64,000 nt of DNA from Parcubacteria group bacterium M6-OD1-4 (GCA_003056205.1 LSNS01000004.1:55870-119869), one strand, 5' to 3'; counted from the first letter of the stretch, positions 1 to 59,265 are shown. A program made the numbers and translations. The notes: generated by a model from the sequence alone, not told the origin.

Positions 1-59
1 TAATTTTTGTAATAATTTCTTACATTCTTACTTTATCATATTAAATATTTTTGTCAAAG

Positions 60-146
60 CAAAATCAATTATATTAGAATAGACTACTAGTAGTCTATTT
101 TAAAGTAATGCTTCCTCGCATACTAGGACAGCTTCTAGACTTTTTT
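60..146 (-). repeat. Cassette-boundary repeat, copy A (partial). 27-mer-like cctcgcatactaggacagcttctagac at 114-140, perfect 16-bp palindrome agactactagtagtct at 81-96. No recognisable tRNA-like core.
   Basis: Aligns with copies B-D of the 27-mer family (gctcgcatacNgggacagcttccgaac). Hairpin sits at the same relative position. Lies at the 3' end of the minus-strand methyltransferase gene. Confidence 0.5.
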
Positions 147-166
147 GTGTGAAAATGACAAGATCT

Positions 167-895
167 TTAAGCTAAGTTACCATTCTTTCTAAATATAAAT
201 AGATGAGACATAGTCGTATCAATAAAATCAAGGTATTTTGGTGCTAATTTAATAAGGACTGAGATTGGTTTAATGCTTAACTTTTTTTCCAAAACTAAAC
301 CTTGAAGTTGAGCCGCTTTTATATAATTTTCATTTGGTCTTAATATATCATATATGATACCTAAGGGTCGAACTGTTTTAACTATCACTTCCCCATTACC
401 AATATCAACCACATCTAATTTATAATCAAATCTAGGCTGTTCAGCATAGGACTTTTCAGCAACAATTAAATAAAATAATCCATTGGGCTTTAAAAAATTT
501 ACAATTTTTTTAAAAGCTTTAGCTAAATCTGGTATATGCTCAAAAACCATGACTGAGACCGCCACATCAAAAGATTTTTTAATATCTGCCTTTGCTAAAG
601 TGTCTTCATATATCTCAATGTCCGGATAAAAATATTTTGAAATCTGAACATTCTTAATTGACGGCTCTATTCCATTAATTTCAACTGCGCCTAATTGTTT
701 TAATAAAGGAAAAAGCTGACCCATGCCACTGCCAATATCAATCACGCTTTTACCTTTAACTACCAAATTGGTCTTTAAATATTCTTGGAATAACTGACGG
801 GTCGGAGATCTTGGCAGACCCTCTTTTTTCCAATCCATCGTTTCAGCGTCATATTGATAAGGATTGGTTGCATACTTAAAATATTCGTTTGTCAT
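167..895 (-). CDS. Class I SAM-dependent methyltransferase
   Basis: 242 aa. Glycine-rich SAM-binding motif VIDIGSGMGQL followed by an acidic residue and then NGIEPS. Rossmann-fold methyltransferase pattern. Confidence 0.7.
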   Translation of the reverse strand: MTNEYFKYATNPYQYDAETMDWKKEGLPRSPTRQLFQEYLKTNLVVKGKSVIDIGSGMGQLFPLLKQLGAVEINGIEPSIKNVQISKYFYPDIEIYEDTLAKADIKKSFDVAVSVMVFEHIPDLAKAFKKIVNFLKPNGLFYLIVAEKSYAEQPRFDYKLDVVDIGNGEVIVKTVRPLGIIYDILRPNENYIKAAQLQGLVLEKKLSIKPISVLIKLAPKYLDFIDTTMSHLFIFRKNGNLA

Positions 896-1006
896 ATTTG
901 TTTAAATTTTAAAATTCTCTAATGTTTAGGGATTAAAAAACGTGCTATAAATTATATTTTTGGCAACTGTTCGGGAGACAAATTATATTAGAACTAAGAT
1001 ACAATC

Positions 1007-1912
1007 TTAATTAATCTTATTAATAGGTTTCTCTAAAAGATAAGAGCTTATATTATCTAAAACTTTTTGGCTTAATCTTAAAACAGATTCTTTTGTTCTG
1101 CCAGCGATAAAATTAGAAAAAATAACTCTTTCCAAATCACAAACTTTCTTGTAAAAGTTTCCCCCCTGAGAAATGTCCATAATTACAAAATTATTTGGCC
1201 TTTTTATCCATTCTATAAAATCATTTTCTTTAAAAGCCATGCCTAAAGTAGTATTAACAAGTATTTTTTCATTCATTAAATCAAAATCATCTTTATCAAA
1301 AATTTTAACATTTTTGGGAGTTTGTAAAATTATAATATCGCTTTTTCTTAAAAGATCTTTCTTATCAACGAAAGTTAATCCTTTATTTTCCCACTCTGTT
1401 TTTCTCGTCTTACTATTATAGAGAACTTTCATTTTAAAGCTCAAAGCTATATTTGCTAATAATTTCCCAATAGCACCCAAGCCAATTATACCCATGGTTT
1501 TTCCACTAAGTTCAGCTGGATAATCTTTCCATTGATATTTACCAAAGCCCCTTACTAAATTAATAAGCTGAAAAAATATATATTCTACAACACCCTCGTC
1601 TCCATAATCAACAATATTAGATACAATAATTTTATTCTTCCTGCACTCTTCCAAATCTATACCGTTAGAGTTTGTTCCACAAAGACAAATAAATCTCAAA
1701 TTTTTACAATTTGAAAGTAATTCTTTGGTTAGAGATGCTCGCCAACTCAACAAAACACAATCTGCGTTAATTAATCTTTCTTTTGTTTCATTATCATCTC
1801 TCGGATTAGAATTAAAAATCTTAATTGAATTTTCAGAATAATCTTTAAGTTTATTCACTGAACTATCAGAAATATTAACATTATCTAAAATTACAATTTG
1901 TTTAAATTTCAT
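1007..1912 (-). CDS. D-isomer-specific 2-hydroxyacid dehydrogenase family protein (NAD-binding)
   Basis: 301 aa. Dinucleotide-binding GIIGLGAIGKLLA motif and overall layout of the PGDH/GDH-like family. Confidence 0.65.
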   Translation of the reverse strand: MKFKQIVILDNVNISDSSVNKLKDYSENSIKIFNSNPRDDNETKERLINADCVLLSWRASLTKELLSNCKNLRFICLCGTNSNGIDLEECRKNKIIVSNIVDYGDEGVVEYIFFQLINLVRGFGKYQWKDYPAELSGKTMGIIGLGAIGKLLANIALSFKMKVLYNSKTRKTEWENKGLTFVDKKDLLRKSDIIILQTPKNVKIFDKDDFDLMNEKILVNTTLGMAFKENDFIEWIKRPNNFVIMDISQGGNFYKKVCDLERVIFSNFIAGRTKESVLRLSQKVLDNISSYLLEKPINKIN

Positions 1913-1946
1913 ATTATCGTAGTATTATTTAATAATCTACACAAAA

Positions 1947-1959
1947 ATTATATCATATC
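1947..1959 (-). promoter_or_regulatory. Extended -10 promoter of cassette B (gatatgatataat on minus strand)
   Basis: TGnTATAAT-type element about 35 nt upstream of the ATG at 1912. Same motif recurs at 3949-3961 and 5527-5539. Confidence 0.5.
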
Positions 1960-1974
1960 TGAAATAATTGGATA

Positions 1975-2130
1975 CTAAACAGGGATTTGAACCGAGAAAA
2001 ATCAGTAAGAATTGGGCTTTTATTGGAATGATAAAAATGTCCGGATCATTCTTGCCTAACAAAAATAGGCCTTTAGGTCTACTTTTATACTTTTTCTTGG
2101 ACATAGGAACAGCTTCCAAACTTTTTTGTG
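1975..2130 (-). repeat. Cassette-boundary repeat, copy B. tRNA-Gln T-arm-like core aaacagggatttgaaccgag at 1978-1997, hairpin 2067-2082, 27-mer-like 2098-2121.
   Basis: 15/15 identity of cagggatttgaacc to the antisense of the tRNA-Gln gene at 8624-8638. Same order of elements as copies C and D. Confidence 0.65.
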
Positions 2131-2155
2131 TATAAATATTAAAATCAAAATCACT

Positions 2156-3038
2156 TCATTTAAAACCCAACCTATTTCTTACGTCTTTAATTGTGTACTG
2201 AAAAGCTCCCCTATTCTCTAGTGACATAGACGCTACCATGGCAGCAAATTTACCCCGTTTCTCAGAATCTTTATATAATTCTAGAGCTCTAATAAACGCT
2301 GACAAATATGTATCTCCAGCCCCTGTTGGATCTACTATTTTATTAGGTTTATATGCTGGTATTTCGTAATATTTTTTATCAACGAACAAATAAGAACCCT
2401 TTGACCCATCTGTTATAATCATATTATCAACACCATTGTTAATAAAAAAATTACCTATCTTTTTCACATTATTATTTATACCAGAAACAAACTTAGCTTC
2501 ATTTAAATCTAAAAAAAAGATATTTTAAATAAGGCAATAATTTAATTAACTTTTCAGGAGATCTTTGAGTAAATTTTCCATTATCAGGGTAAGTAAACAC
2601 TCCAAAATTTCCTAAAATTAAATTTTTATGTTTTAAATTTTTAAAAACATTCTCTGGAATATTATCATTAAACAAAGGAGAAAAAATTATATAATCAAAT
2701 TTATCTAAATTTTTTAATAATTTATTATCTAAAAACATTACGTTTGGAGAATATTTAATTTCTATAGAAACACATAAATCAGGATTATTACTATGATAAA
2801 ATCTTGAAAACTCTAAAGTTTTTTCTACGGGAACGTGAACAAAACTAATATCTTTAAAATTATTCTTTACCCACTCTTCATCATGTTCACTAAATGTTAT
2901 AAAAGGAACTATTTCTTTAATTCCTAGATTTCTAAATGTATGCGCTATATAATAAGGAATCCCACCGATTTGTAACTTTAAATCGTTATCTATTTTAATA
3001 TAATCTTTACAAATTGGGCCTAAAACTGCAACTCTCAT
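2156..3038 (-). pseudogene. PfkB/ribokinase-family carbohydrate kinase, split by a +1 frameshift inside an A8 homopolymer (2511-2518).
   Basis: N-terminal ORF 2499..3038 has ribokinase-like VAVLGPI..GG. C-terminal ORF 2156..2467 carries the PfkB signature DPTGAGDTY. Removing one A joins them into a continuous ...YLKYLFFLDLNEAKF... protein. Confidence 0.6.
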
Positions 3039-3039
3039 A

Positions 3040-3927
3040 TTAATTTAAACTAATTCTTCTACTTTCCCCTTTTGCTTTAGCTTCTATTTCATCATTGTTA
3101 ATTTTAAACTCAATACTCTCACAATTATTTACACTATAATCTTTAAAATTCTTTCCTAAAAAATATAGCAATGAATTTTCATGACTAAAAGCTAAAACCT
3201 TTATATTTTTACTATAATCTGATTCATTTATCTTTTTTTGTCCAAATTTCATTAATCTAATTATATTTTTAAATTCCCTATTATACATTTCTTCAGCTGT
3301 TCTTATATCAGGAAATATTTTTGCTATTTCATTAGAATGCTTATAATAATTTTTACCCCAAGTACCTTGGTTGTCTAATTCAATTATTTTCCTTGCCTTT
3401 TTCCAATTATCTAACACATTCTGAGAGACATTTTTCTTGTTTTTTACCACTTCATTAAGATAATCTTTTTGGGGATGAAAAATAAACTCCAAAAGCATAT
3501 TCTTTAAATCTAAAGACAAACTATCTATTTTTCTTATTTCACCATCTCCTATTTTCTCAATCAAATCATCCCTGATATTATTGGGCTTAATAATTTCAAA
3601 ACCTCTCTCTTTAGCAACATTTTTATAAATTTTAGCTGTTTCAGCCGCTCTTACTAAATCACTAGAAACTATAAATAGAGAATCTCTCTCTGGATCTAAA
3701 TCATTAAAAAAATTTTCAGCTTCACTATGAGCCATTTCTTTTCCTTCTGGTGTCAAATCTGATAAAAAATCTTGTTTTTTTGGATCATGAAAATCTTCTG
3801 GATTGTTAGATGCTACAATATCTTCATTCATTCTATATTTAGACTTTCCATGCCTAGTAATAAAAAACCTATCATCTTTCTTCTCTTTTTTTCCTAATGC
3901 CCCTACCTTTTCAAAATCATTTTTCAT
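3040..3927 (-). CDS. Histidine phosphatase superfamily protein (PGAM-like)
   Basis: 295 aa. N-terminal RHG motif (FFITRHGKS) and a distal SH motif (LAFSHENS), typical of branch-1 histidine phosphatases. Confidence 0.5.
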   Translation of the reverse strand: MKNDFEKVGALGKKEKKDDRFFITRHGKSKYRMNEDIVASNNPEDFHDPKKQDFLSDLTPEGKEMAHSEAENFFNDLDPERDSLFIVSSDLVRAAETAKIYKNVAKERGFEIIKPNNIRDDLIEKIGDGEIRKIDSLSLDLKNMLLEFIFHPQKDYLNEVVKNKKNVSQNVLDNWKKARKIIELDNQGTWGKNYYKHSNEIAKIFPDIRTAEEMYNREFKNIIRLMKFGQKKINESDYSKNIKVLAFSHENSLLYFLGKNFKDYSVNNCESIEFKINNDEIEAKAKGESRRISLN

Positions 3928-3948
3928 ATATCTTTACCTTATTTATTA

Positions 3949-3961
3949 ATTATATCACATC
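3949..3961 (-). promoter_or_regulatory. Extended -10 promoter of cassette C (gatgtgatataat on minus strand)
   Basis: TGaTATAAT about 30 nt upstream of the ATG at 3927, immediately after repeat core C. Confidence 0.5.
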
Positions 3962-3977
3962 TAAATATATAAAATAA

Positions 3978-4090
3978 CCCAATAAGGACTCAAACCGAGA
4001 AATACGAAAAAAAATAAAACAAAACGAGCTTTTAAACTCGCTTTATAATAGTTTGCTCGCATACTGGGACAGCTTCCGAACTTTTTTAAT
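3978..4090 (-). repeat. Cassette-boundary repeat, copy C (short form). Core-like aataaggactcaaaccgag 3981-3999, hairpin cgagcttttaaactcg 4025-4040, 27-mer gctcgcatactgggacagcttccgaac 4055-4081.
   Basis: Element order matches copies B and D. On the minus strand the hairpin is followed by a U-run, giving a terminator for the upstream Fic gene. Confidence 0.65.
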
Positions 4091-4199
4091 CAAATATTAG
4101 AAGTTTTGTTTACTTTTTTATTTTGCTCAAATTAATTAGCTGTATCCGTACTAAAAATTAAAATAATTTTTTGTCCGAGGTAAATTCTATTTGGTTAAT

Positions 4200-5246
4200 T
4201 TATTTAAAATAATTATTGACCGCATCTTCAAATTGTTCAATAAAGATCTGCTTAAAATAAGAAATATTATTTAGTTCATAAAACAATATCATGGCTTTTA
4301 TATATTCTTCGGTATCAACTATTCGATAAGAAAGCGGAATTGAGTTATGCGCCAATAAAATAGCATTAGAAATCATTCGTGAGGTTCTTTTGTTGCCGTC
4401 TTCAAATACTTGAATATAGGCGATAAGAATGGAAACTAAAAAAGCCTTTTCAAAAAATGATTCTTTTTTATTGATTAAATCCACCATTTCTCGAGCCACT
4501 TTTTCAATTTGTTGGCTAATAGCCAAAGGCTTATACTTAGTGCCGACGATGGCGACAGTGCCGTTTCTCACATTCTTGGAGATTCCAAGTTTTTTGGTTA
4601 AAACAGAATGGATATACTCAATATCAGAATAGTTTAACTTGCTGAATCTTTCTTTATTCTGAATAGCCTCATTAAAAGCATCTTTATGGTTAAGGATCAT
4701 CTGAGTTTCTTTTTCAGTGTTCCCCTTTCCAACAACATTATTTTTAATCAAAGCCTCTGTGCCTAAAAGTGAATAGGTGTTTCCCTCTATCGCTGATGAC
4801 TTCCAAGAAAATTCGATCATTATCCTTTCAAATTCTTTATTGATAAGAGTTTGACTGTCATATCTGGAAAAGTTTTTGATAAACTCTCTTTGTAACTTCT
4901 CTAATTTTTCCTTTTCTTCTACCGTAAAAGTATCATTACTTAAAAGTTTAAATATTCCAAAATTAAAGCTTTCTTTCGCTTCTCTTTTTAGATACGGTAT
5001 TTTAAAATATTTTTTAACATCAATTTTTTTTAAAACGTTAGAGATCTCCGATAAAGAATATACCGTATTTTTACCAACGCCTTTTTTAGAGATTAATAAC
5101 TGTTTTTCCAACTCCTTTAAATCTCTTTGCAGGGTTTTTCTATCTATTCCTACGCTTAAAAGGAATAAAATATCAGATACCGATATTTCCGCCTCTTGTT
5201 TCATAAAAGAAATTATTTTATTTTGTCTTACCTGTTTTTTATTCAT
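4200..5246 (-). CDS. HTH-Fic/DOC family protein with a degenerate Fic motif
   Basis: 348 aa. N-terminal winged-HTH-like segment. Fic-like core ...QVFEDGNKRTSR... instead of canonical HPFx[DE]GNGRxxR: the His and the second Gly are replaced. Confidence 0.5.
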   Translation of the reverse strand: MNKKQVRQNKIISFMKQEAEISVSDILFLLSVGIDRKTLQRDLKELEKQLLISKKGVGKNTVYSLSEISNVLKKIDVKKYFKIPYLKREAKESFNFGIFKLLSNDTFTVEEKEKLEKLQREFIKNFSRYDSQTLINKEFERIMIEFSWKSSAIEGNTYSLLGTEALIKNNVVGKGNTEKETQMILNHKDAFNEAIQNKERFSKLNYSDIEYIHSVLTKKLGISKNVRNGTVAIVGTKYKPLAISQQIEKVAREMVDLINKKESFFEKAFLVSILIAYIQVFEDGNKRTSRMISNAILLAHNSIPLSYRIVDTEEYIKAMILFYELNNISYFKQIFIEQFEDAVNNYFK

Positions 5247-5265
5247 ATAAAGACTATAACATTTA

Positions 5266-5370
5266 TCGCGACATTTTTAAAGCCTATTTGCGACAATTTT
5301 TCTATAATTCTTATAAAAACCTTATAAATAAAGGGTTTCATTGCGACATTTTTAAAGCCCATTTGCGACT
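5266..5370. promoter_or_regulatory. Two direct ~30-nt operator-like repeats (tYgcgacatttttaaagccYatttgcgacW) at 5266-5295 and 5341-5370, upstream of the HTH-Fic gene
   Basis: Near-identical copies, each containing an internal gcgaca...gcgaca half-site pair. They sit 20-125 nt upstream of the ATG at 5246, and copy 1 overlaps a TGtTATAGT -10-like element. Confidence 0.5.
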
Positions 5371-5526
5371 TAAATATTAGAACCGCCGGCACCCTAGCTT
5401 CATTTTATTACAATTTCCCGCTAAAAGCTTTCTTGACGCTTATCACAATAATCATTCCACGACCCAAGATTTTTTGAAAATATACTTTGCCTGCATCACT
5501 CACAAGCCTAAAGCTCTCACACATTT

Positions 5527-5539
5527 ATTATACCACATC
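5527..5539 (-). promoter_or_regulatory. Extended -10 promoter of cassette D (gatgtggtataat on minus strand)
   Basis: Same conserved motif as in cassettes B and C, about 25 nt after repeat core D. Confidence 0.45.
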
Positions 5540-5547
5540 CTAAGCTC

Positions 5548-5720
5548 AAAAACAGGGACAGGGACTTGAACTAAGATAGGTCAATGAATATGGGGCTTTT
5601 ATAAAAACAACTAGTTTATACTAAAAATCTCTGGACTACTTTTCCCTCACAAAAATGGGCCTGAAAGCCCACTTTCATATCTTAGCTCGCATACAGGGAC
5701 GACTTCCGAACTTTTTGTTT
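5548..5720 (-). repeat. Cassette-boundary repeat, copy D (long form). Core aacagggacagggacttgaac 5550-5570, terminator hairpin tgggcctgaaagccca 5656-5671, 27-mer gctcgcatacagggacgacttccgaac 5685-5711.
   Basis: Reverse complement gttcaagtccctgtccc matches the tRNA-Gln 3' part gttcaaatccctgtccc with one mismatch. Shares the internal gggcttttata segment with copy B. Confidence 0.7.
5649..5672 (-). terminator. Rho-independent terminator of the heparinase-like gene (tgggc-tttcag-gccca plus U-run on the minus strand)
   Basis: 5-bp GC stem followed by tttttgtg on the minus strand, about 130 nt downstream of the stop at 5803. Confidence 0.55.
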
Positions 5721-5802
5721 AAAAAGATTAGGAAATGTTGAAGTTTATCTATAAAGAAAGCCATACTCCTTTTTTGACTTTTTTTGATTGGTGCAGAAAT
5801 AT

Positions 5803-7626
5803 TTAATTTCGTTTTTCAATCCGCATATTAACTTTTACAGAAACCTTTGATTTATTTGTCTTGGGAATGTTAAAAGTAATTCTTTTTAGAATACGAGGCT
5901 TTTTATTGAATAGAATTTCTTTTTTTAACTCCTCTACAAGAAAATCGCTGGCAATATCGGGTTGTTTAATGGTCAAAATTAAATTATACTTTTTTCCATA
6001 TATTATCACCTCCTTGTTTTTTGCAGTTACTTTTAGCCACGTGATAAAAACCTCTTCAATATTAGAAGATTTCTTTAAAAATATATACTCATCATTAAAA
6101 ATTATAGAATTTTTTATTTTTGCATTTTGTTTTAGCAATATTATTTTTCTATTTAAGCTTATCAATGATTTCACGCTATAAGCATCGACTAATTCAACAG
6201 TTACTCTTTTTTTGTATTTAGAAATACTTGTAGAAATAAGTTTAGCAAAATATTTTTTTCCTTTTGACTGTAATTTGTTATTTACTCTAGGAACACTATG
6301 TCCGTAGGAATTAGCGAAAATACTATTATATCTTTTGGCACTAAAATAATCTTTGTCATATAGGCCCGCACCAGGGTCAGTGACAAAATTCTCTCCATCA
6401 ATGTTTATTATATAGCTACCCAGATCATTGTGATTATGATTTTCATTATTATGCCCAGCTTTAATGATCAATATAGCTGGAGTCTTTCGAGATTCATTAA
6501 CAAGACGAACGATTCCAAGGTCAGGTAAAACTGAATCTTTGTAAATATTGTTTTGATTTACCTGTTTTTTATTCCACCATAAAACATACCTAAGAATGTT
6601 AGAAATTCCAAGCCAATCAGGTTTAGATGACTCCGAAATAAAATTTGATAATGATTTTTCCCCAGTGGCTTGTAACAACTTTTGCATAATTCCTGGATTA
6701 AACACTACACTACTCTCACTAGTATCTGAAAAGCTAGCAAATGTTTCCGAGCTGAGCTGCATCTTTGAGGGAAGTGTGGCAATTTGTTTTACACGTTTAG
6801 TTTTTAGTAGATCAATTTTACCGCCAGTGGAAGATTTTAGCATTTCAGAAAAAATTACAAACATGCTTAATCCATAATTCCAATAGTGAACGCCTTCACT
6901 GGTTCCACCGTCTTCATAAAAAGCTTTGTTAATATAAACTTCTAGACTATCAAGGGCTTTTTTTATCGCTCGTGCTTTACGAGCAATATTTTTCTCAAGC
7001 AACAAAAAAGCTATGGCTACATCGCTATTACACACCGCGTTCCAATTATTATGATTTTTATACCACTTATGTTTTGATGTTTGGTTTAAATATGGATCAA
7101 ATATTTTTTCTTCAATAGACTCACGTACAATTAGACTAACTTTTTCGTCAATTTTGTCCCCCATAATAAAAAATACTTCAGCAAGTATTCTTGCTGTATT
7201 TGAAGAATAAAGGTCAATCATTCTTCCTTTATGGCATGGCACCACCCAAGTCTCTTCTTTACAGATCGCCAAAAGATATTTTTCAATAATATCTTTATAG
7301 CTTGAACGCCCTAATATATATAAAAAAACAGCGCTTGAAAGATATTCCCTGCGTTCGTTGTAAGGTTTTTCATATGCATCTCTTTCGCCTGTTTTAAAGA
7401 AAGAATTGTACAATATATGGTTGAGCTTTGGAATATTCTTTATTTTCGGGCTAACTTTTTTGATTAAATTTAATACTATTTTTGTTTGTTCTTTTTTTAA
7501 TATTTTTGAAGGATTTTGAAGTGCACTTTTTAATTCAGGGAAAGGATGATTTCCGGAAATCAAAAAACTTACAATTTGTTTATGACTGTAATTAAAAACC
7601 TTATTATTTCTGCCATTATACTTCAT
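5803..7626 (-). CDS. Heparinase II/III-like polysaccharide lyase family protein
   Basis: 607 aa. C-terminal region GHNNENHNHNDLGSYIINIDGENFVTDPGAGLYDKDYF resembles the heparinase II/III-like domain (His-rich segment followed by a beta-sandwich). Confidence 0.5.
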   Translation of the reverse strand: MKYNGRNNKVFNYSHKQIVSFLISGNHPFPELKSALQNPSKILKKEQTKIVLNLIKKVSPKIKNIPKLNHILYNSFFKTGERDAYEKPYNERREYLSSAVFLYILGRSSYKDIIEKYLLAICKEETWVVPCHKGRMIDLYSSNTARILAEVFFIMGDKIDEKVSLIVRESIEEKIFDPYLNQTSKHKWYKNHNNWNAVCNSDVAIAFLLLEKNIARKARAIKKALDSLEVYINKAFYEDGGTSEGVHYWNYGLSMFVIFSEMLKSSTGGKIDLLKTKRVKQIATLPSKMQLSSETFASFSDTSESSVVFNPGIMQKLLQATGEKSLSNFISESSKPDWLGISNILRYVLWWNKKQVNQNNIYKDSVLPDLGIVRLVNESRKTPAILIIKAGHNNENHNHNDLGSYIINIDGENFVTDPGAGLYDKDYFSAKRYNSIFANSYGHSVPRVNNKLQSKGKKYFAKLISTSISKYKKRVTVELVDAYSVKSLISLNRKIILLKQNAKIKNSIIFNDEYIFLKKSSNIEEVFITWLKVTAKNKEVIIYGKKYNLILTIKQPDIASDFLVEELKKEILFNKKPRILKRITFNIPKTNKSKVSVKVNMRIEKRN

Positions 7627-7699
7627 TTATAAAAAATTAAGCTCAATCTATTTCTTAATTTTAGCATAATTTAAACCAAAGTTCGAGTCCCGCTTGCAC

Positions 7700-7775
7700 T
7701 AGCAACAGGGACAAGAAATTGATTTGCTGAGATTAGGTAAATTATATAAGAAAAGAAAATCACTTCCGAACTCCT
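7700..7775 (-). repeat. Degenerate cassette-boundary repeat, copy E. Core-like caacagggacaag 7702-7715 and partial 27-mer cacttccgaactcc 7761-7774. Adjacent plus-strand tRNA-3'-like fragment gttcgagtcccgcttgcacta 7681-7701.
   Basis: Partial matches to the copy B-D consensus at the expected position between two minus-strand genes. Confidence 0.4.
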
Positions 7776-7914
7776 AAAACATGGCGAATATTACGAAAAA
7801 ACAGGTGCTTTCGCACCTGCTCATCCCGTTCTGCTCGAAGTCGTGGACGATGTTAGAACCAGAATTATGTTATGTAAATAAAAAACCCACCGAAATAGGT
7901 TTTCTATTAGTGGG

Positions 7915-8559
7915 TCATGTTCTTGTAAATGTATCAAATTCCAAATACAGAATAGCACTAGCAGCGCCATAGCCGTTTTTGGAATATCGCCCTTCATGTT
8001 TTAATAAGCCAAGCACTTGTTCAACATATACAAAAGATAAACAAAGACCAGCATAATATCTTAGAATATCTTGCATTCCTAGAAAGAATAAAAAACGCAC
8101 TCTCTCTGGAAGTTTTCTAAACTTATAAATACATGATATTGGTGATAATGGCTTATTCTCCGGAAAAGCTAATGAATTGCTATACTTAGCTTTGTATAAA
8201 AACTCTGGAATAAGTCGTTCACATATCTCAATATATTCTGCTATGTTTTCGGAGCTATAACCAGATACATCTAATTTTAGCCTAAAACGCTCCAACACAT
8301 ATAAAAAAAGTATATACATCTGACCGCTGGCATTATAATCACCTGAGTAAATAATATCGTTAGAAATACATGATAATTTTAATTGCTCCATTTCTCTGAT
8401 GTACCTATTATTTTTTAAGATAAATACAGGTGTCATCTGCGGTAAGCTACCAAAAGCATTATAATAATCAAGAAAAGCAACTATGTTTATTATTTTACTC
8501 TCCTCATTATAAAAATAATTATAATTTTTTTCCATGGCTCTTATTTTAAAGTTCAACAA
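7915..8559 (-). CDS. Hypothetical protein (first gene downstream of tRNA-Gln)
   Basis: 214-aa ORF with no recognisable motifs. Not an integrase, despite its position next to the tRNA. Confidence 0.35.
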   Translation of the reverse strand: MLNFKIRAMEKNYNYFYNEESKIINIVAFLDYYNAFGSLPQMTPVFILKNNRYIREMEQLKLSCISNDIIYSGDYNASGQMYILFLYVLERFRLKLDVSGYSSENIAEYIEICERLIPEFLYKAKYSNSLAFPENKPLSPISCIYKFRKLPERVRFLFFLGMQDILRYYAGLCLSFVYVEQVLGLLKHEGRYSKNGYGAASAILYLEFDTFTRT

Positions 8560-8617
8560 AATATTTATTTAAATATAAAAAAAGCATATCATACGATATA
8601 CTTTTTGTCAAGACTTG

Positions 8618-8688
8618 CTCGGGGACAGGGATTTGAACCCCGATTAACTGGACCAGAACCAGTCGTCCTACCATTAGACGATCCCCGA
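8618..8688 (-). tRNA. tRNA-Gln (anticodon CTG)
   Basis: Reverse complement tcggggatcgtctaatggtaggacgactggttctggtccagttaatcggggttcaaatccctgtccccgag folds as a cloverleaf. 7-bp acceptor tcgggga/tccccga, anticodon stem actgg/ccagt, loop ttCTGgt. Confidence 0.85.
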
Positions 8689-8710
8689 ATATTTTTTATT
8701 ATATTTTTTA

Positions 8711-10231
8711 TTAATCTTTCTTTTCGTTTTTTTCTGATCGGGGTTTCATCAGCGGAAAAAGAGTAGTTTCTCGCAATGGTTTATCTACTAAAAAGGCGAA
8801 TAAACGTTCTCCAAAACCAAAACCACAAGTCGGAGGCATACCATATTCCAACATCTCGACAAATTCCCAATCAGGCATCATCGCTTCTTGATCACCTTGA
8901 TCAATTAATTTTTGTTGGAGTTCAAAACGTGCTTGTTGATCTTGGGGATCATTTAACTCTGAAAAACCATTCGCTAATTCACTACCAGCAATAATTACTT
9001 GAAAACGTTCTGTTAATTCTGGATTATCAACTTTAGCTTTAGATAAAGGTGAAACTAACTTAGGATGATTGATTAGAAATACTGGACCAGCAATATTCCG
9101 ACGACAATATTTCCAAAGAGTATCTGTTAAACGTTCCCGATTGGTCCCCTCGTACTTGACCTGTAATTTTTGTAGAGTGCTCATCATTTCTTGTTCGGAA
9201 GATTTCAAAACATCGATTCCGGTCTGTCGCAAAACCTCACTCTGATAATCTAATCGTGGCCATTCACCAGCTAAATCATAATGGAAATTTTTAGTGGTGA
9301 ATTTTGTTGTTTCAAAAACTTTTAAAGCTATTTCTTGAAATAAATCTTGAGTTAATTTCATGCCGTCCTCATAGTTAGCATAGGCCCAATAAAACTCCAT
9401 ATTGGTAAATTCTTGAAGATGATCAGGACTAGAGCCCTCGTTACGATATACTCGTCCAATTTCAAAAGTTTTTTCAAAACCAGCAGCCATTAATCTTTTC
9501 TGCCAAAGTTCCCCCACTGAAATGCGCATAAAAACATCTAAATCAAAATCATCATGATGAGTTTTAAAGGGATTAGCTTCTGCTCCACCAGTAGTCGTTT
9601 CAATTGTGGGAGTCTCGACCTCAAAAAATCCTTTTTCTTTCATGAAGTTACGAGTTACTTCCCAAAATTTAGCTTTTTTATAAAAAATTTCTCGAAGCTC
9701 GGGATTAAGTAAAAGATCTAAATAACGTTTTCGTAAGCGGTCATCTTCATCCTTTAAACCATACCAAGAATCAGGAATGGGACGTAGTGATTTCGTCAGT
9801 AATTGCCAATCTTTGACCATGACGCTTTTTTCCCCTTGATGAGTAAGAAAAACCTGTCCCTGAATAGCAATAAAATCACCAAGATCAATCAATTTAAGAA
9901 AATTATGATAAGAATCGGAGCCTAACTCTTTTTTAGAAAAAGCTAATTGAATTTTAGCTGAGGCATCTTCTAAATCGGCAAAAGTTAAATTACCATGCTC
10001 TCTTCGGCCTCGTAAACGTCCCACAATATGAAAAACTTTTTCTGATTTATTAAAATCATCAAAATCATCTAGAATGGTTTTAATTTTTTGATCACGTTTA
10101 ACTTGGGCGGGATAGGGATTAATACCCAGTTTGAGTAACTCTGCTAATTTTTTCAGACGATCTTGATGTTCACCACTGGCGGAGTGCTGAAGTTCTTGAT
10201 CTGCTGATTTTATTGAAGAAGTGCTAGACAT
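8711..10231 (-). CDS. lysS: Lysine--tRNA ligase (class II)
   Basis: 506 aa. Class II motifs including ELANGFSELNDPQDQ and the FGxGxxR motif-3 region, with an OB-fold anticodon-binding N-terminus. Confidence 0.9.
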   Translation of the reverse strand: MSSTSSIKSADQELQHSASGEHQDRLKKLAELLKLGINPYPAQVKRDQKIKTILDDFDDFNKSEKVFHIVGRLRGRREHGNLTFADLEDASAKIQLAFSKKELGSDSYHNFLKLIDLGDFIAIQGQVFLTHQGEKSVMVKDWQLLTKSLRPIPDSWYGLKDEDDRLRKRYLDLLLNPELREIFYKKAKFWEVTRNFMKEKGFFEVETPTIETTTGGAEANPFKTHHDDFDLDVFMRISVGELWQKRLMAAGFEKTFEIGRVYRNEGSSPDHLQEFTNMEFYWAYANYEDGMKLTQDLFQEIALKVFETTKFTTKNFHYDLAGEWPRLDYQSEVLRQTGIDVLKSSEQEMMSTLQKLQVKYEGTNRERLTDTLWKYCRRNIAGPVFLINHPKLVSPLSKAKVDNPELTERFQVIIAGSELANGFSELNDPQDQQARFELQQKLIDQGDQEAMMPDWEFVEMLEYGMPPTCGFGFGERLFAFLVDKPLRETTLFPLMKPRSEKNEKKD

Positions 10232-10249: not shown

Positions 10250-10708
10250 TTAACTTACTTTAATAATTTTATATTTTACCCGGCCGTTAGGCGTTTCTAC
10301 TTCAACCTCTTCTCCGGAATGTCTATTTAAAAAAGCAACTCCGAGGGGTGATTCGTTGGAAATTTTTCCCTGAAGTGGATCGGCTTCATTAAAACTGACG
10401 ATAACATACTCTTTTTTACCGCCAGCTGAACGAACCAGCACTTTAGAACCCATGGCTACTTTTCCGTGAGAAGTTGTATTCTGAACAACAGTTACATTCT
10501 TTAAAGTATTCGATAACTCTGAAACTCGCCCCTCATTTAAGGCTTGAGCATCCTTTGCTTCGCTATACTCAGCATTTTCACTAAGATCACCATGCTCTTT
10601 AGCGCGCTCAATTCGCTCCGCAATTTCCTTTCGTCGTACCGTTGATAATAAGTTAAGCTCAGTCTTTAGTTTATCGTAGCCCTCCTGAGAAATAATTTGT
10701 TCGTTCAT
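10250..10708 (-). CDS. greA: Transcription elongation factor GreA
   Basis: 152 aa. Gre-factor fingerprint: N-terminal coiled-coil with GDLSENAEY, C-terminal FKBP-like domain. Confidence 0.85.
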   Translation of the reverse strand: MNEQIISQEGYDKLKTELNLLSTVRRKEIAERIERAKEHGDLSENAEYSEAKDAQALNEGRVSELSNTLKNVTVVQNTTSHGKVAMGSKVLVRSAGGKKEYVIVSFNEADPLQGKISNESPLGVAFLNRHSGEEVEVETPNGRVKYKIIKVS

Positions 10709-28038: not shown

Positions 28039-28941
28039 CTAAAGTTTCTGGTTATCTTCTAATTGTTGAATTTTCTTAATTATTTCTTGGAGTTGTTCTC
28101 CATTATAAAAATCAATAATAATTTTTCCACCAGATCCCCGTCGTCGCAACTCAACTTTAGTATCTAAAATACTACTTAAGCGTTTTTCTTCAGTACGATC
28201 AAAATAAGTTTTAACCTGAGCCGCCTTTGTCCCTCCTAGACGCTTAATTTCTTGATTAGTCTGAGCCACACTTAAATTCTGCCGAATAATCTTTTTAAAA
28301 ATATTTAATTGTTTAGCTGGGTTATCTATTCCTAATAAGTATTTCGCATGAGCAGCAGTAATTTTTTCAGTAATTAAAGCTTCCTGAATTTCTGTTGGCA
28401 AACTTAACAGACGTAAGCTATTAGCAATACTTGACCGCGCTTTGCCTAAACGCTGGGCCGCTTCTTCTTGAGTAATATTAAATTCATCAATTAAGCGTTG
28501 GTAGGCCCGAGCATTTTCTAAAGGATTCAGATCTTCACGTTGAAGATTTTCAATCAATGCTAACTCTAATTTTTTTTGTTGTTTTTCTTGACGAACTAAA
28601 ACTGGAACTTTTTTCAAACCTAAGAGCTTAGCACTGCGTAAGCGTCGTTCGCCAGCAATTAACTCAAAACCATCTTTTTTCTTAGTAACAATCAAGGGTT
28701 GAATAATTCCGTGCTCACGAATAGAATCAGCCAAATCCTTTAAAGAAGCTTCTGAAAAAGTTGTTCGGGGTTGTAAAGGATTAATACTAATTCGTTCGGG
28801 ACTAATTCGCAGCACCCGATCACGATCATCGACAACTAATAATTCTCCAGTAGTTGTTGCTCCCGAAAAAGAACTTTGACCTAAACTAACTGTTTTTTTT
28901 GGAATCAAGGAACTAAGACCTCGCCCTAAACTTTTAGACAT
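28039..28941 (-). CDS. parB: Chromosome partitioning protein ParB/Spo0J
   Basis: 300 aa. ParB box (IAGERRLRSAKLLGL) and an HTH region. Confidence 0.85.
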   Translation of the reverse strand: MSKSLGRGLSSLIPKKTVSLGQSSFSGATTTGELLVVDDRDRVLRISPERISINPLQPRTTFSEASLKDLADSIREHGIIQPLIVTKKKDGFELIAGERRLRSAKLLGLKKVPVLVRQEKQQKKLELALIENLQREDLNPLENARAYQRLIDEFNITQEEAAQRLGKARSSIANSLRLLSLPTEIQEALITEKITAAHAKYLLGIDNPAKQLNIFKKIIRQNLSVAQTNQEIKRLGGTKAAQVKTYFDRTEEKRLSSILDTKVELRRRGSGGKIIIDFYNGEQLQEIIKKIQQLEDNQKL

Positions 28942-28945
28942 ATAA

Positions 28946-29710
28946 TTATTTTTCTAAACTTATAATTTCTCTAGCTAAACCCTGATAAGCTCTTCCCCCT
29001 TTAGATTTTGGATCATAATGTAAAATAGAGCGACCATAACTTGGAGCTTCCGCTAAACGAACACTACGCGGAATGACCGATCTAAAAATACGATTAGGAA
29101 AGTATTGATATAATTCATTCATTACTGAACTAGATAAACGATTGCGTTTATCAAACATAGTAATAATTGCTCCCATAATACCTAAGCTTGGTTTTAAATT
29201 ATTTTGTACTAAACTAATAGTTTCCAATAGCTGACTTAAACCTTCTAAAGCATAATATTCACTCTGGATAGGAATTAAAACTTCATCAGCGGCGACCAAG
29301 CTATTGATAGTTAAAAGTCCTAAAGAAGGTGGACCATCAATAATAATATAATCAAAATCATCTTTTAAATCTCCTAAAATCTGGGCTAAACGAAACTCCC
29401 GATTATCCATGGCGACCATTTCCACACCCGCCCCGGCTAAAGAAATTGTCGCCGGAGCAATTTTTAAACCAGTCTGAATAGTTCTTTTTAGAACTTTTGA
29501 TAATTCTTGCTCACCGATTAAAGCTTCATAAACACCAACTTTTAAAGCTTTTTGATCAACACCCAGACCTGAAGTAGCGTTAGCTTGGGGATCAATATCA
29601 ACTAATAGAACTTGCTTACCTAACTGAGCTAAATAAGCACTAAGATTAACCGCTGTAGTAGTTTTACCAACCCCACCTTTTTGGTTCACAATCGCTAAGA
29701 TTTTACTCAT
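28946..29710 (-). CDS. parA: Chromosome partitioning ATPase ParA/Soj
   Basis: 254 aa. Deviant Walker A motif KGGVGKTT. Confidence 0.9.
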   Translation of the reverse strand: MSKILAIVNQKGGVGKTTTAVNLSAYLAQLGKQVLLVDIDPQANATSGLGVDQKALKVGVYEALIGEQELSKVLKRTIQTGLKIAPATISLAGAGVEMVAMDNREFRLAQILGDLKDDFDYIIIDGPPSLGLLTINSLVAADEVLIPIQSEYYALEGLSQLLETISLVQNNLKPSLGIMGAIITMFDKRNRLSSSVMNELYQYFPNRIFRSVIPRSVRLAEAPSYGRSILHYDPKSKGGRAYQGLAREIISLEK

Positions 29711-36168: not shown

Positions 36169-36447
36169 ATGTTTTTAGATTAGTGGCTAAATTATTTCCG
36201 ATAACGCGCGCGGATAATCCAAGGTTTCTTGAAACAAATCCCGAAGGGTTTGTGGAAAGAAATTTTTGGATATCCGTTGTTATACGAAGTTCCGCGGAGC
36301 GGAATGAAGTATAACGGCGGAGGTATGCGCGCGCGTTATTCAAAATGGAGTGAAGCGGAATTTTGAATAACTAGTTATTATCCAAACTCTATGCCTATAT
36401 TGTAACAATATCTTGTATGTCATGCAAACTTTTGATACAATATTGAT

Positions 36448-37260
36448 ATGGATAAAATTTTAGAAAAAACTGATCGCTTGTTGCGACTTCGCAATTATAG
36501 TCCAAAAACTCGCAAAGCATATTTGCTTTACATTAAAAATTATATCACATTTTCCAAAACACTTGGTATAAAAAACAAGCAAAAAGCGATTGAAAATTTT
36601 TTGCTTGATAAACACAGACGAAAGCAATCTCCACAGACGATTAACTTGGCACTCAACTCTGTAAAATTCTTATATACAGAAGTATTAGGGGATTCGCAGA
36701 AAATTGACTTAAAATTTGCAAAAAGAAGTAAGAAGTTGCCAATAGTATTATCACGAGCAGAAATTAACAAAATCATTGAGACAACCGATAACTCAAAGTA
36801 TAAGCTCATGATTTCGCTTGGTTATGCTTGTGGTATGAGAGTTAGCGAAGTGGTAAAACTTAAGGTATCAGATTTAGATATTGATGAGCTTGTTGTACAT
36901 ATTAAGGGAGCAAAAGGAAAGAAAGATAGAATTAGCGTGTTACCAGAAAAATTGCAAAACGATTTACGAAATGCTATTGCGGGTAAAAATGTAAACGATT
37001 TTATCTTTACTTCCAATCGTGGTGGCAGTCTCACGACAACATCACTCCAAAAAATGTTTCGGAAAAGTTTGGCAAAAGCAAACGTGAGCAAACCTGCAAC
37101 TTTTCACTCTTTGCGACACTCCTTTGCCACTCACTTATTAGAAAACGGAACAGATGTACGCTATGTGCAGGAATTACTTGGGCACGCCAACATCCGTACC
37201 ACGCAAATATACACTCAAGTTACAAATCCAAAATTAAAGAATATTAAAAGTCCATTGTAA
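36448..37260 (+). CDS. Tyrosine site-specific recombinase/integrase (XerC/D-like)
   Basis: 270 aa. N-terminal SAM-like core-binding domain. Catalytic motifs include R in GMRVSE, HSLRHSFATHLL (HxxR) and GHANIRTTQIYTQV (nucleophile Tyr). Confidence 0.85.
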   Translation: MDKILEKTDRLLRLRNYSPKTRKAYLLYIKNYITFSKTLGIKNKQKAIENFLLDKHRRKQSPQTINLALNSVKFLYTEVLGDSQKIDLKFAKRSKKLPIVLSRAEINKIIETTDNSKYKLMISLGYACGMRVSEVVKLKVSDLDIDELVVHIKGAKGKKDRISVLPEKLQNDLRNAIAGKNVNDFIFTSNRGGSLTTTSLQKMFRKSLAKANVSKPATFHSLRHSFATHLLENGTDVRYVQELLGHANIRTTQIYTQVTNPKLKNIKSPL

Positions 37261-59178: not shown

Positions 59179-59265
59179 TGGTGGGCCGAGTTGGATTCGA
59201 ACCAACGAAGGCATAAAGCCAGCAGTTTTACAGACTGCTCCAGTTGACCGCTTTGGTATCGACCC
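59179..59265 (-). tRNA. tRNA-Tyr (anticodon GTA), type II, with encoded CCA
   Basis: Reverse complement gggtcgataccaaagcggtcaactggagcagtctgtaaaactgctggctttatgccttcgttggttcgaatccaactcggcccacca. Anticodon loop ctGTAaa. Confidence 0.8.

Follow-up and report, generated by a model that had tools for sequence, protein, structure and literature searches.

We analyzed a 64,000-nt stretch of DNA from Parcubacteria group bacterium M6-OD1-4 (GCA_003056205.1 LSNS01000004.1:55870-119869), hereafter called the window, in which a series of short gene cassettes lies downstream of a tRNA-Gln(CTG) gene. On balance, we favor the view that the cassettes form an integron-like array without a recombinase of its own, anchored at the 3' end of tRNA-Gln, and that recombination takes place in trans at a 27-nt site. 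This site (hereafter the 27-mer, GTTCGGAAGCTGTCCnnGTATGCGAGC) is not a local repeat: near-exact copies were found at about 60 loci in several lineages of the Candidate Phyla Radiation (CPR). No prior description of the motif was found in Rfam or in the literature searched, and the same literature held no account of such CPR cassette arrays. As judged from the alignment of related loci, the recombination junction maps to the GAGC end of the 27-mer, within the motif or at most 8 nt to its right.

Organization of the array downstream of tRNA-Gln

The window is AT-rich (GC about 32%), and the minus strand carries every gene from 12 kb down to position 1. Toward position 1 the gene order is greA, lysS, tRNA-Gln(CTG) and then the cassettes. 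Five intergenic units, between positions 1 and 8700, separate single genes or gene pairs downstream of the tRNA gene. The ordered blocks that an initial annotation of the sequence had described in these units were reproduced by alignment of all five and read, in gene orientation, as an A-run with the 27-mer, a GC hairpin with a T-run, a spacer, a T-arm core, about 25 nt and TGnTATAAT. The cargo, one gene or gene pair per interval, was also found as described (Pfam), with two amendments: the PfkB kinase gene is split, and a 214-aa open reading frame (ORF) lies beside the tRNA gene. Cassettes measure 0.3-2.1 kb; each has its own promoter, and a terminator stands between neighbors.

10250-10708, minus strand: greA (Pfam)
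8711-10231, minus strand: lysS (Pfam)
8617-8688, minus strand: tRNA-Gln(CTG), anchor of the array, 3' end ..TCCCTGTCCCCGAGCA (ARAGORN; Rfam 59.3 bits)
7833-8616, minus strand: cassette 1, with promoter, 214-aa ORF and variant junction site
8583-8611, minus strand: cassette 1 promoter TTGACA-17-TATGCT, directly after tRNA-Gln
7915-8559, minus strand: cassette 1 ORF, 214 aa, adjoining tRNA-Gln; no match in Pfam, NCBIfam or PADLOC
7833-7859, minus strand: variant (v2-family) junction site of unit E, GTTCTAACATCGTCCACGACTTCGAGC
7627-7832, minus strand: unit E (unit alignment, repeat family D5)
7793-7829, minus strand: unit E terminator hairpin (-21.5 kcal/mol, z = -6.5)
7762-7773, minus strand: partial second motif in unit E, GAGTTCGGAAGT
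7704-7722, minus strand: degenerate T-arm core of unit E
7681-7704, plus strand: reverse-oriented tRNA 3'-like fragment in unit E
about 7658-7669, minus strand: promoter-like sequence of unit E, TATGCTAAAAT
5803-7626, minus strand: cassette 2 cargo, heparinase II/III-like, 607 aa (Pfam PF07940)
5685-5711, minus strand: 27-mer D, GTTCGGAAGTCGTCCCTGTATGCGAGC, an intact GTTC..CGAGC site (3 mismatches; 38 bits)
5527-5684, minus strand: remainder of unit D, with hairpin (5648-5679), spacer, core and -10 box
5555-5571, minus strand: T-arm core of unit D, GTTCAAGTCCCTGTCCC
5527-5535, minus strand: -10 box of unit D, TGGTATAAT
4200-5246, minus strand: cassette 3 cargo, helix-turn-helix (HTH)-Fic, 348 aa (Pfam Fic; PADLOC SoFic, PDC-S04)
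4055-4081, minus strand: 27-mer C, canonical GTTCGGAAGCTGTCCCAGTATGCGAGC, exact (45 bits)
3928-4054, minus strand: remainder of unit C, with hairpin (4015-4050)
3981-4000, minus strand: diverged core of unit C
3949-3957, minus strand: -10 box of unit C, TGATATAAT
2156-3927, minus strand: cassette 4 cargo (Pfam)
3040-3927, minus strand: histidine phosphatase of cassette 4 (Pfam)
2499-3038 and 2156-2467, minus strand: PfkB kinase of cassette 4, as two ORFs (Pfam)
1913-2155, minus strand: unit B, with degenerate 27-mer, hairpin, core and -10 box
2095-2121, minus strand: degenerate 27-mer of unit B, GAGC lost (29 bits, nhmmer)
2059-2088, minus strand: hairpin of unit B
1976-1992, minus strand: core of unit B, GTTCAAATCCCTGT
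1947-1955, minus strand: -10 box of unit B, TGATATAAT
167-1912, minus strand: cassette 5 cargo, 2-hydroxyacid dehydrogenase (1007-1912) and class I methyltransferase (167-895) (Pfam)
1-166, minus strand: unit A, which lacks a T-arm core
114-140, minus strand: degenerate 27-mer of unit A (33 bits, nhmmer)
68-109, minus strand: hairpin of unit A
30-57, minus strand: promoter of unit A, TTGACA-16-TAAAGT

At up to three mismatches, the 27-mer occurs in the 64 kb only as copies C and D (0 expected). The ends GTTC..[CG]GAGC are kept at the tRNA-proximal sites E, D and C and lost at B, A and the next site beyond the window, a distribution consistent with insertion near the tRNA and decay farther out; these three distal sites look fixed. 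The cargo of one distal cassette appears to be decaying as well, given that the PfkB gene is broken into two ORFs. The hairpin assigned to every unit is strong in A, C, D and E (-10 to -21.5 kcal/mol, z = -3.1 to -6.5) and weak in B (z = -1.4). The remainder of unit D is about 75% identical to the segment directly following tRNA-Gln in another CPR locus (L112).

The extended -10 box, first put forward as a distinctive block of the unit, is a generic promoter signal of this genome: of the 11 occurrences of TGnTATAAT in the window, only 3 belong to units, and the box is also found at core-gene promoters. Terminator hairpins are likewise generic, and one could propose that the unit as a whole is a terminator-plus-promoter signature of an AT-rich genome whose repeats arose by convergence. 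We regard this as most improbable. It holds for the -10 block alone and is already refuted for the 27-mer and the cores: the 27-mer does not occur in the remaining 55 kb of the window, it is recovered in distant genomes with nhmmer E-values down to 1e-13, and the units are 68-76% identical over 150-217 nt to units of another genome.

Two direct repeats of 33 nt (TTYATYGCGACATTTTTAAAGCCYATTTGCGAC, family D6; 5262-5294 and 5337-5369), spaced 75 nt apart, immediately precede the HTH-Fic gene. They look like putative autoregulatory operator sites.

The 27-mer in other CPR genomes

The consensus of about 60 distinct copies is AAAAAAGTTCGGAAGCTGTCCnnGTATGCGAGC(A/C), in which nn are the sole freely varying positions, with 11 dinucleotides seen. 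An exact pattern of 17 specified bases was searched in one genome per species (185,579 species representatives). It gave 68 matches, about the number expected by chance, of which 20 (19 loci) also have a 5' extension, ..AAAAAAGTTCG, that was not part of the pattern. All 20 of these true copies are on low-GC contigs, labeled Magasanik-, Falkow-, Komeili- or Parcubacteria or Saccharimonadales, apart from nine with non-CPR labels. A stricter pattern retrieved 50 metagenome loci. The motif is clustered, with one to five copies per locus, and two or three co-oriented copies are present in L019, L044, L079 and L112. As the initial annotation had anticipated, the same repeat is found with different cargo, since it flanks different genes at the roughly 60 loci.

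The nine contigs with non-CPR labels (L011, L013, L023, L029, L031, L045, L054, L055 and L064) are assigned to Gammaproteobacteria, Endomicrobiaceae, Flavobacteriaceae or Udaeobacter and have a GC content of 30-43%. At both its 5' and 3' ends, the tRNA-Gln of L013 is the same as the CPR copies, and L013 and L064, labeled as different phyla, are 92% identical over 1.1 kb at the nucleotide level. We suspect mis-binning; cross-phylum spread is the other explanation.

The gene preceding the 27-mer is co-directional with it, and a terminator-like hairpin with a T-run follows in 38 of 59 distinct copies, starting at a median of 10 nt past GAGC (controls: 3/59 for shuffled sequences and 10/59 for random positions). 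A motif that is always co-transcribed with the upstream gene and closely precedes an intrinsic terminator could serve chiefly as an RNA or transcription element within the 3' untranslated regions of accessory genes, a mimic of the tRNA 3' end acting in processing, stability or termination. Shuffling would then be a by-product of homologous recombination between 33-bp patches and the tRNA, for example after DNA uptake. A terminator also follows the equivalent position after the tRNA, and no recombinase lies near the arrays, both of which suit this explanation. However, a signal of general use in expression should also accompany core genes, whereas the motif is rare (19 genome loci) and clustered, has no Rfam match and contains no stable or covarying structure. 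Together with the junctions described below, this leads us to consider the RNA-element explanation unlikely.

Several other identities of the motif were examined. In Rfam, only tRNAs were found at the gathering threshold and nothing credible at E-values up to 5 in positions 1-9000, so that a known structured RNA family was set aside for want of a covariance-model match. A stable hairpin was rejected on z-scores near zero, and a coding sequence on inspection, the variable dinucleotide being unlike a wobble position. A phage origin was dismissed with 0 matches in a viral contig collection.

Recombination junctions at the GAGC end

Breakpoints were taken from an all-against-all comparison of the loci. 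Homology between genomes ends 0-5 nt from the GAGC end of the motif in six independent comparisons (L013, L064 and L093 with one another; L015/L092 with L112; the L042 group with L082; L044 with L111, at both ends; L111 with L123). The clearest layout is that of a 904-bp cassette, 99.6% identical between L044 (6089-6998) and L111 (1672-2581), which comprises a terminator segment, a promoter, a 196-aa ORF and a 27-mer. To its left are unrelated genes in the two loci, ending in different site variants. To its right, L044 has an extra cassette directly after GAGC, ending in a third variant, GGTTCGGACTTTACTCGGTAAAGGGAGC, past which the post-motif sequence of L111 resumes at 85% identity.

Segments were also found joined to either a tRNA or a 27-mer. 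The terminator segment GAATTTTTAYGAAAAAATATCGCTAAC.. is common to L113, where it follows a tRNA-Asn ending in ..GGAGCA, and to L013 and L079, where it follows a 27-mer ending in ..GCGAGCA. In the same way, the segment after tRNA-Gln in L112 is homologous to segments after the 27-mer in L112 and in the window (68-76% over 150-217 nt).

The left flanks of these joints share only GAGCA, a pattern that favors a process directed by a specific site or by microhomology over exchange of the RecA type. The crossover can be placed only within the motif or up to 8 nt to its right because canonical motifs are identical to each other. Breakpoints of canonical copies at motif edges are thus expected under any mechanism, including the RNA-element explanation; the joints that bring together flanks sharing only GAGCA, or different site variants, speak against it, as their homology is too short for RecA.

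The proposal in the initial annotation of repeated site-specific insertion at a tRNA 3' end appears right in kind, with the junction at the 27-mer rather than at the T-arm core on which that proposal was built.

Link to tRNA-Gln and tRNA-Asn

At the 13 distinct loci with a same-strand upstream tRNA in the available sequence, this was tRNA-Gln in nine (anticodon CTG or TTG), tRNA-Asn in four, and never another. Among the tRNAs compared, only these two have a 3' end in ..GAGCA. Saccharimonadales (L071/L124) and L112 have the same greA-lysS-tRNA-Gln order as the window, and L042 has its lysS-tRNA-Gln part. The genes that come after these shared blocks are unrelated in every one of these genomes, which bears out the prediction that relatives carry different cargo at this locus. 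The 473 neighboring ORFs fall into 333 families, with restriction-modification, toxin-antitoxin, NUDIX, ABC transporter and Peptidase_S51 proteins as recurrent cargo. Homologs of Peptidase_S51 are found in or beside the arrays of five genomes (L002 4639-5244, L019 2785-3393, L076, L110 and L112), the one in L019 about 40 nt upstream of a 27-mer.

The sites themselves also resemble the tRNA. A gapless alignment of the last 16 nt of the 27-mer, TCCCTGTATGCGAGCA, with the 3' end of tRNA-Gln, TCCCTGTCYCCGAGCA, gives 14/16 matches in one L112 copy. A variant family termed v2, GGTTCGAACTTCGTCCRYGACCCCGAGY, is present in L015, L118, L111 and unit E of the window, and its right half is close to the 3' end of the resident tRNA. 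In L118, a direct repeat of CCCCGAGCCA surrounds an insert of about 330 bp adjoining tRNA-Gln(TTG), and its distal copy is the right half of a v2 site. On sequence grounds this is a classic insertion signature at a tRNA 3' end.

Among the T-arm cores, D (5555-5571) equals tRNA-Gln at 16 of 17 positions. Core B (1976-1992) departs from the core pattern at 3 positions; this pattern has 4 matches in total against 0.14 expected. Both score 15 against tRNA-Gln and at most 11 against four other tRNAs, a value reached by 0 of 2000 shuffles. The derivation from tRNA-Gln claimed for all the cores thus stands for B and D, whereas C and E are individually not significant (230/2000 and 88/2000 shuffles). 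The cores track each genome's own tRNA-Gln, with TTCAAAT..GTCCC in the window and TTCGAAT..GTCTCC in L112, and the distance to the -10 box is roughly fixed at about 40 nt. They lack the terminal GAGCA, and no mapped junction coincides with one. We read the cores as tRNA-derived debris riding in terminator segments. Many units also contain reverse-oriented tRNA 3'-end-like fragments, placed after the terminator and ahead of the following promoter (window 7681-7704, plus strand; L013, L044, L079, L113). Their sequence is gttcgagtcccgcttgcactagca in the window and TGGAGG..GGATTCGAAC elsewhere, and tRNA-Gln is not its source.

Cores B and D as specific copies of tRNA-Gln that track the resident gene, the L118 repeat around an insert and site decay that grows with distance from the tRNA are what one would expect if the array were a fossil of serial tRNA-targeting integrative elements, their integrases lost and the repeats being decayed attL and attR sites. 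We nevertheless find this improbable. No integrase or fragment of one was detected in the 13 tRNA-linked loci or in the 60 loci overall, the cassettes are just 0.3-2.1 kb with a promoter each, and the mapped junctions lie at the 27-mer and not at the cores. Moreover, the 27-mer, unlike the cores, does not follow the resident tRNA and is nearly invariant across CPR lineages, which indicates a conserved rather than a decaying site.

The locus beyond position 1

Using public contigs of the same strain with identical proteins, the locus was extended by 6.6 kb past position 1. A MazE/ParE-like pair comes first, then one more recognizable, degenerate unit (L002 4385-4409), followed by genes for Peptidase_S51, a glycosylase-like protein, an F420-ligase-like protein, a gamma-polyglutamate (PGA) hydrolase, a haloacid dehalogenase (HAD) hydrolase, a cupin and a CMAS-like methyltransferase. 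The array had been predicted to continue upstream of the window, where an integrase might reside. It does continue, by only this one recognizable unit, and no recombinase or integrase was found in the 6.6 kb. As none was found in the 60 related loci either, the region is neither a tycheposon, the kind of island with which it had been compared, nor a classical integrase-bearing island.

Search for the recombinase

No recombinase was detected near the arrays in the 60 loci, with Pfam applied to 140 of 395 representative proteins and phmmer to all 473 ORFs (queries: a tyrosine recombinase and the gamma-delta resolvase). HUH or transposase enzymes were absent from the approximately 35 window ORFs scanned with Pfam, among which there is a single recombinase.

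36448-37260, plus strand: 270-aa XerA/integron-integrase-like tyrosine recombinase (Pfam)

In NCBIfam this protein matches the integron integrase model TIGR02249 with 223 bits (cut-off 265), in two separate stretches, and XerA with 209 bits (cut-off 220). It appears, from its sequence, to lack the insertion specific to IntI. More than 7,400 homologs were retrieved, and the top 120, from Specht-, Kerfeld-, Vogel- and Moranii-bacteria, share 81-90% protein identity. Nucleotide identity is about 76% in the one pair compared (Kerfeldbacteria, L133). Such high protein identity against lower nucleotide identity points to strong purifying selection and not to recent transfer. Protein identity across CPR orders is far above what we would expect for core proteins. 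The gene neighbors of the recombinase vary by genome (L133, L139, L142, L145, L147, L148), and many homologs are on contigs of about 1 kb.

The recombinase gene is preceded by a conserved element of about 60 nt. On the opposite strand this element reads AGTTCGGA (L145) or AGTTTGGA (window), matching the left arm of the motif. In Kerfeld- and Vogelbacteria it forms a 27-nt 9-9-9 palindrome that agrees with the motif at 13 of 25 positions without gaps (shuffle p about 0.01). This lox-like palindrome was considered as the cognate site and rejected, being identical in two lineages and non-palindromic in four others; it is only a hint. The 270-aa recombinase, which the initial annotation had placed next to tRNA-Leu(CAG), could possibly act on the array in trans. 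In the window, the GC-rich stretch at 36190-36345, upstream of the recombinase gene, contains nested inverted repeats, ATAACGCGCGCG..CGCGCGCGTTAT and GTTATACGAAGTTCCGC-GGA-GCGGAATGAAGTATAAC; its nucleotide sequence is not conserved in the one other genome compared (L133).

A model for cassette exchange and the evidence against it

Under the integron-like reading, a cassette would consist, in order, of an optional terminator segment that contains debris of tRNA origin, a promoter of its own, a gene or gene pair and a 3' site of about 27 nt. Cassettes would be gained, lost and exchanged by breaking and joining at the GAGC end of this site. The 3' ends of tRNA-Gln and tRNA-Asn (..GAGCA) would be the primary landing pads, and a v2 site, its right half copying the 3' end of the resident tRNA, would mark tRNA-proximal insertions. 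We infer the action of a site-specific enzyme, supplied in trans. Candidates are the conserved XerA/IntI-like tyrosine recombinase and an unrecognized single-strand (HUH-type) nuclease; the latter mechanism would fit the asymmetry of the site, whose conserved part is 5' of the junction, the adjacent hairpin and the co-orientation with leading-strand genes. A broader proposal, which we advance tentatively as possible and still doubtful, is that cassette capture of this kind is CPR-wide, with a 27-nt tRNA-mimic site, a tRNA 3' end as an attI-like platform, and a XerA/IntI-like recombinase or a nuclease acting in trans.

A number of results weigh against the integron-like reading. As regards the enzyme, none is linked to the 27-mer site, and the motif resembles the element ahead of the recombinase gene only weakly (p about 0.01-0.05 after multiple looks), the element being non-palindromic in most lineages. 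As regards the site, its outer ends GTTCG and CGAGC form an imperfect inverted repeat, and a 10-7-10 reading, GTTCGGAAGC|TGTCCnn|GTATGCGAGC, gives 6/10 symmetric positions on inspection; the dyad symmetry is thus weak, and nothing is conserved to the right of the motif, which is atypical of the core site of a tyrosine recombinase. The 27-mer's own hairpin is unremarkable (z = -1.5 to +1.2), and its likeness to the tRNA 3' end, taken alone, is not significant in the window. For 27 motif copies, the available sequence reaches at least 4.5 kb upstream; 15 of these copies have no tRNA in it, so the arrays are either long or not exclusively tRNA-linked. In addition, the pairing of terminator segments with gene segments changes at a less defined second junction near the promoter, for which a single-site model is insufficient.

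Within the species, too, the evidence is unfavorable. In several samples, contigs of this species run collinear with the window (99-100% identity), and no circular or empty-site junctions were seen. The sole structural variant, LSNU01000001.1 (L125 11371-11450, window about 3877), breaks inside a gene, away from any motif or repeat: it departs after codon 17 of the histidine-phosphatase gene and, past the divergence, has a different terminator and promoter. Presence/absence of cassettes within the species was accordingly rejected, as the public contigs are all collinear except for this in-gene variant. Several public contigs end at window positions 3850-3907.

Other features of the window

28039-29710: parB and parA

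The position of parAB suggests that the window is origin-proximal; no turning point of the GC skew was found within the 64 kb. The GC skew is monotonic and gene orientation constant across the array and the 6.6 kb beyond position 1. ARAGORN called a tRNA-Tyr at 59179-59265, where the Rfam tRNA model is silent at the gathering threshold. Between 42000 and 45000, GC drops to 28% and the genes encode NUDIX and isochorismatase proteins next to unannotated ORFs; this may be a second flexible region, in which no cassette motif was detected.

Comparison with known systems

Set beside described systems, the array would work like an integron or a cluster of attC sites lacking integron integrases (CALIN), or like Xer-mobilized modules, yet by our comparison it fails the defining tests of each. 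With integrons and CALINs it shares co-oriented cassettes of one or two genes, each ending in a recombination site that lies almost entirely left of the junction, a very diverse cargo that includes toxin-antitoxin pairs, and arrays with no integrase nearby. In NCBIfam, too, the recombinase of this genome comes closest to the integron integrase model, although its score is below the IntI cut-off. In contrast to attC, a sequence-variable hairpin with R''/R' boxes, the site here is 27 nt of conserved sequence. With respect to the attC bounds RYYYAAC/GTTRRRY, GTTCGGA fits GTTRRRY at 5/7 positions on inspection, an R'' partner is missing, and the hairpin formed by the site itself is not significant. 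A tRNA 3' end, and not an attI beside intI, is the platform: in place of intI, attI and Pc next to the first cassette, we found greA, lysS and tRNA-Gln upstream and the recombinase 28 kb away. Integron cassettes are mostly promoterless and driven by Pc, whereas those described here have their own promoters (extended -10) and terminators. The array has three intact and three degenerate co-oriented sites and no recombinase within it or in the 6.6 kb beyond, as in a CALIN; since the sites are not attC, this likeness is one of analogy and not of membership.

Tycheposons are defined by an element-borne site-specific integrase together with hallmark mobility and replication genes (Hackl et al., bioRxiv 10.1101/2020.12.28.424599). 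The region resembles them in its streamlined genome, its location at one full-length tRNA, the scattered partial tRNA copies and the pushing of older insertions outward by newer ones; tRNA-Gln is full-length at the proximal end, and partial copies (cores B and D) lie within. It differs in having no element-borne integrase and in its much smaller units, which end in a conserved 27-mer that is not a tRNA sequence. The direct repeat of a tRNA 3' segment that is typical of classical islands was seen in L118, but the 27-mer does not follow the tRNA and the cores have no GAGCA.

Integrative mobile elements exploiting Xer (IMEX) and pdif modules lack an integrase and are moved by the host Xer recombinase at dif-like sites. 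Here too, modules without a recombinase are bounded by direct copies of a conserved site (about 28 bp in those systems), and a conserved host Xer-type enzyme is a plausible actor. Against two inverted arms with a 6-8 bp spacer in Xer-dif, the 27-mer shows the 6/10 symmetry noted above, and it is sporadic rather than one per genome and linked to tRNA-Gln or tRNA-Asn. The array was also considered as a chromosomal dif and rejected: skew and orientation are unchanged across it, parAB is 20 kb away, and the motif is present at 19 genome loci only.

HUH systems comprise IS200/IS605, their non-autonomous palindrome-associated transposable element (PATE) derivatives and the nic sites of relaxases. 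The likeness lies in an asymmetric site 5' of the junction, an adjacent hairpin, co-orientation with replication and non-autonomous units mobilized in trans. The differences are that no HUH enzyme was found among the scanned ORFs, that the hairpins vary in sequence and that the cargo consists of whole expressed genes.

Significance for CPR bacteria

CPR bacteria, or Patescibacteria, have very small genomes with few recognizable mobile elements and no genetic tools. If cassette capture of this kind were indeed CPR-wide, it would be, in function, an independently evolved analogue of the integron, which would explain how accessory and defense genes are exchanged among tiny genomes poor in mobile elements. 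If the integron-like reading is true, the array would add an independent case of cassettes organized in the manner of an integron, and the 27-mer would serve as a sequence tag for the flexible CPR gene pool in metagenomes and as a concrete substrate for biochemistry with a single candidate recombinase. Possibly, it would also provide a natural landing pad for engineering CPR organisms.

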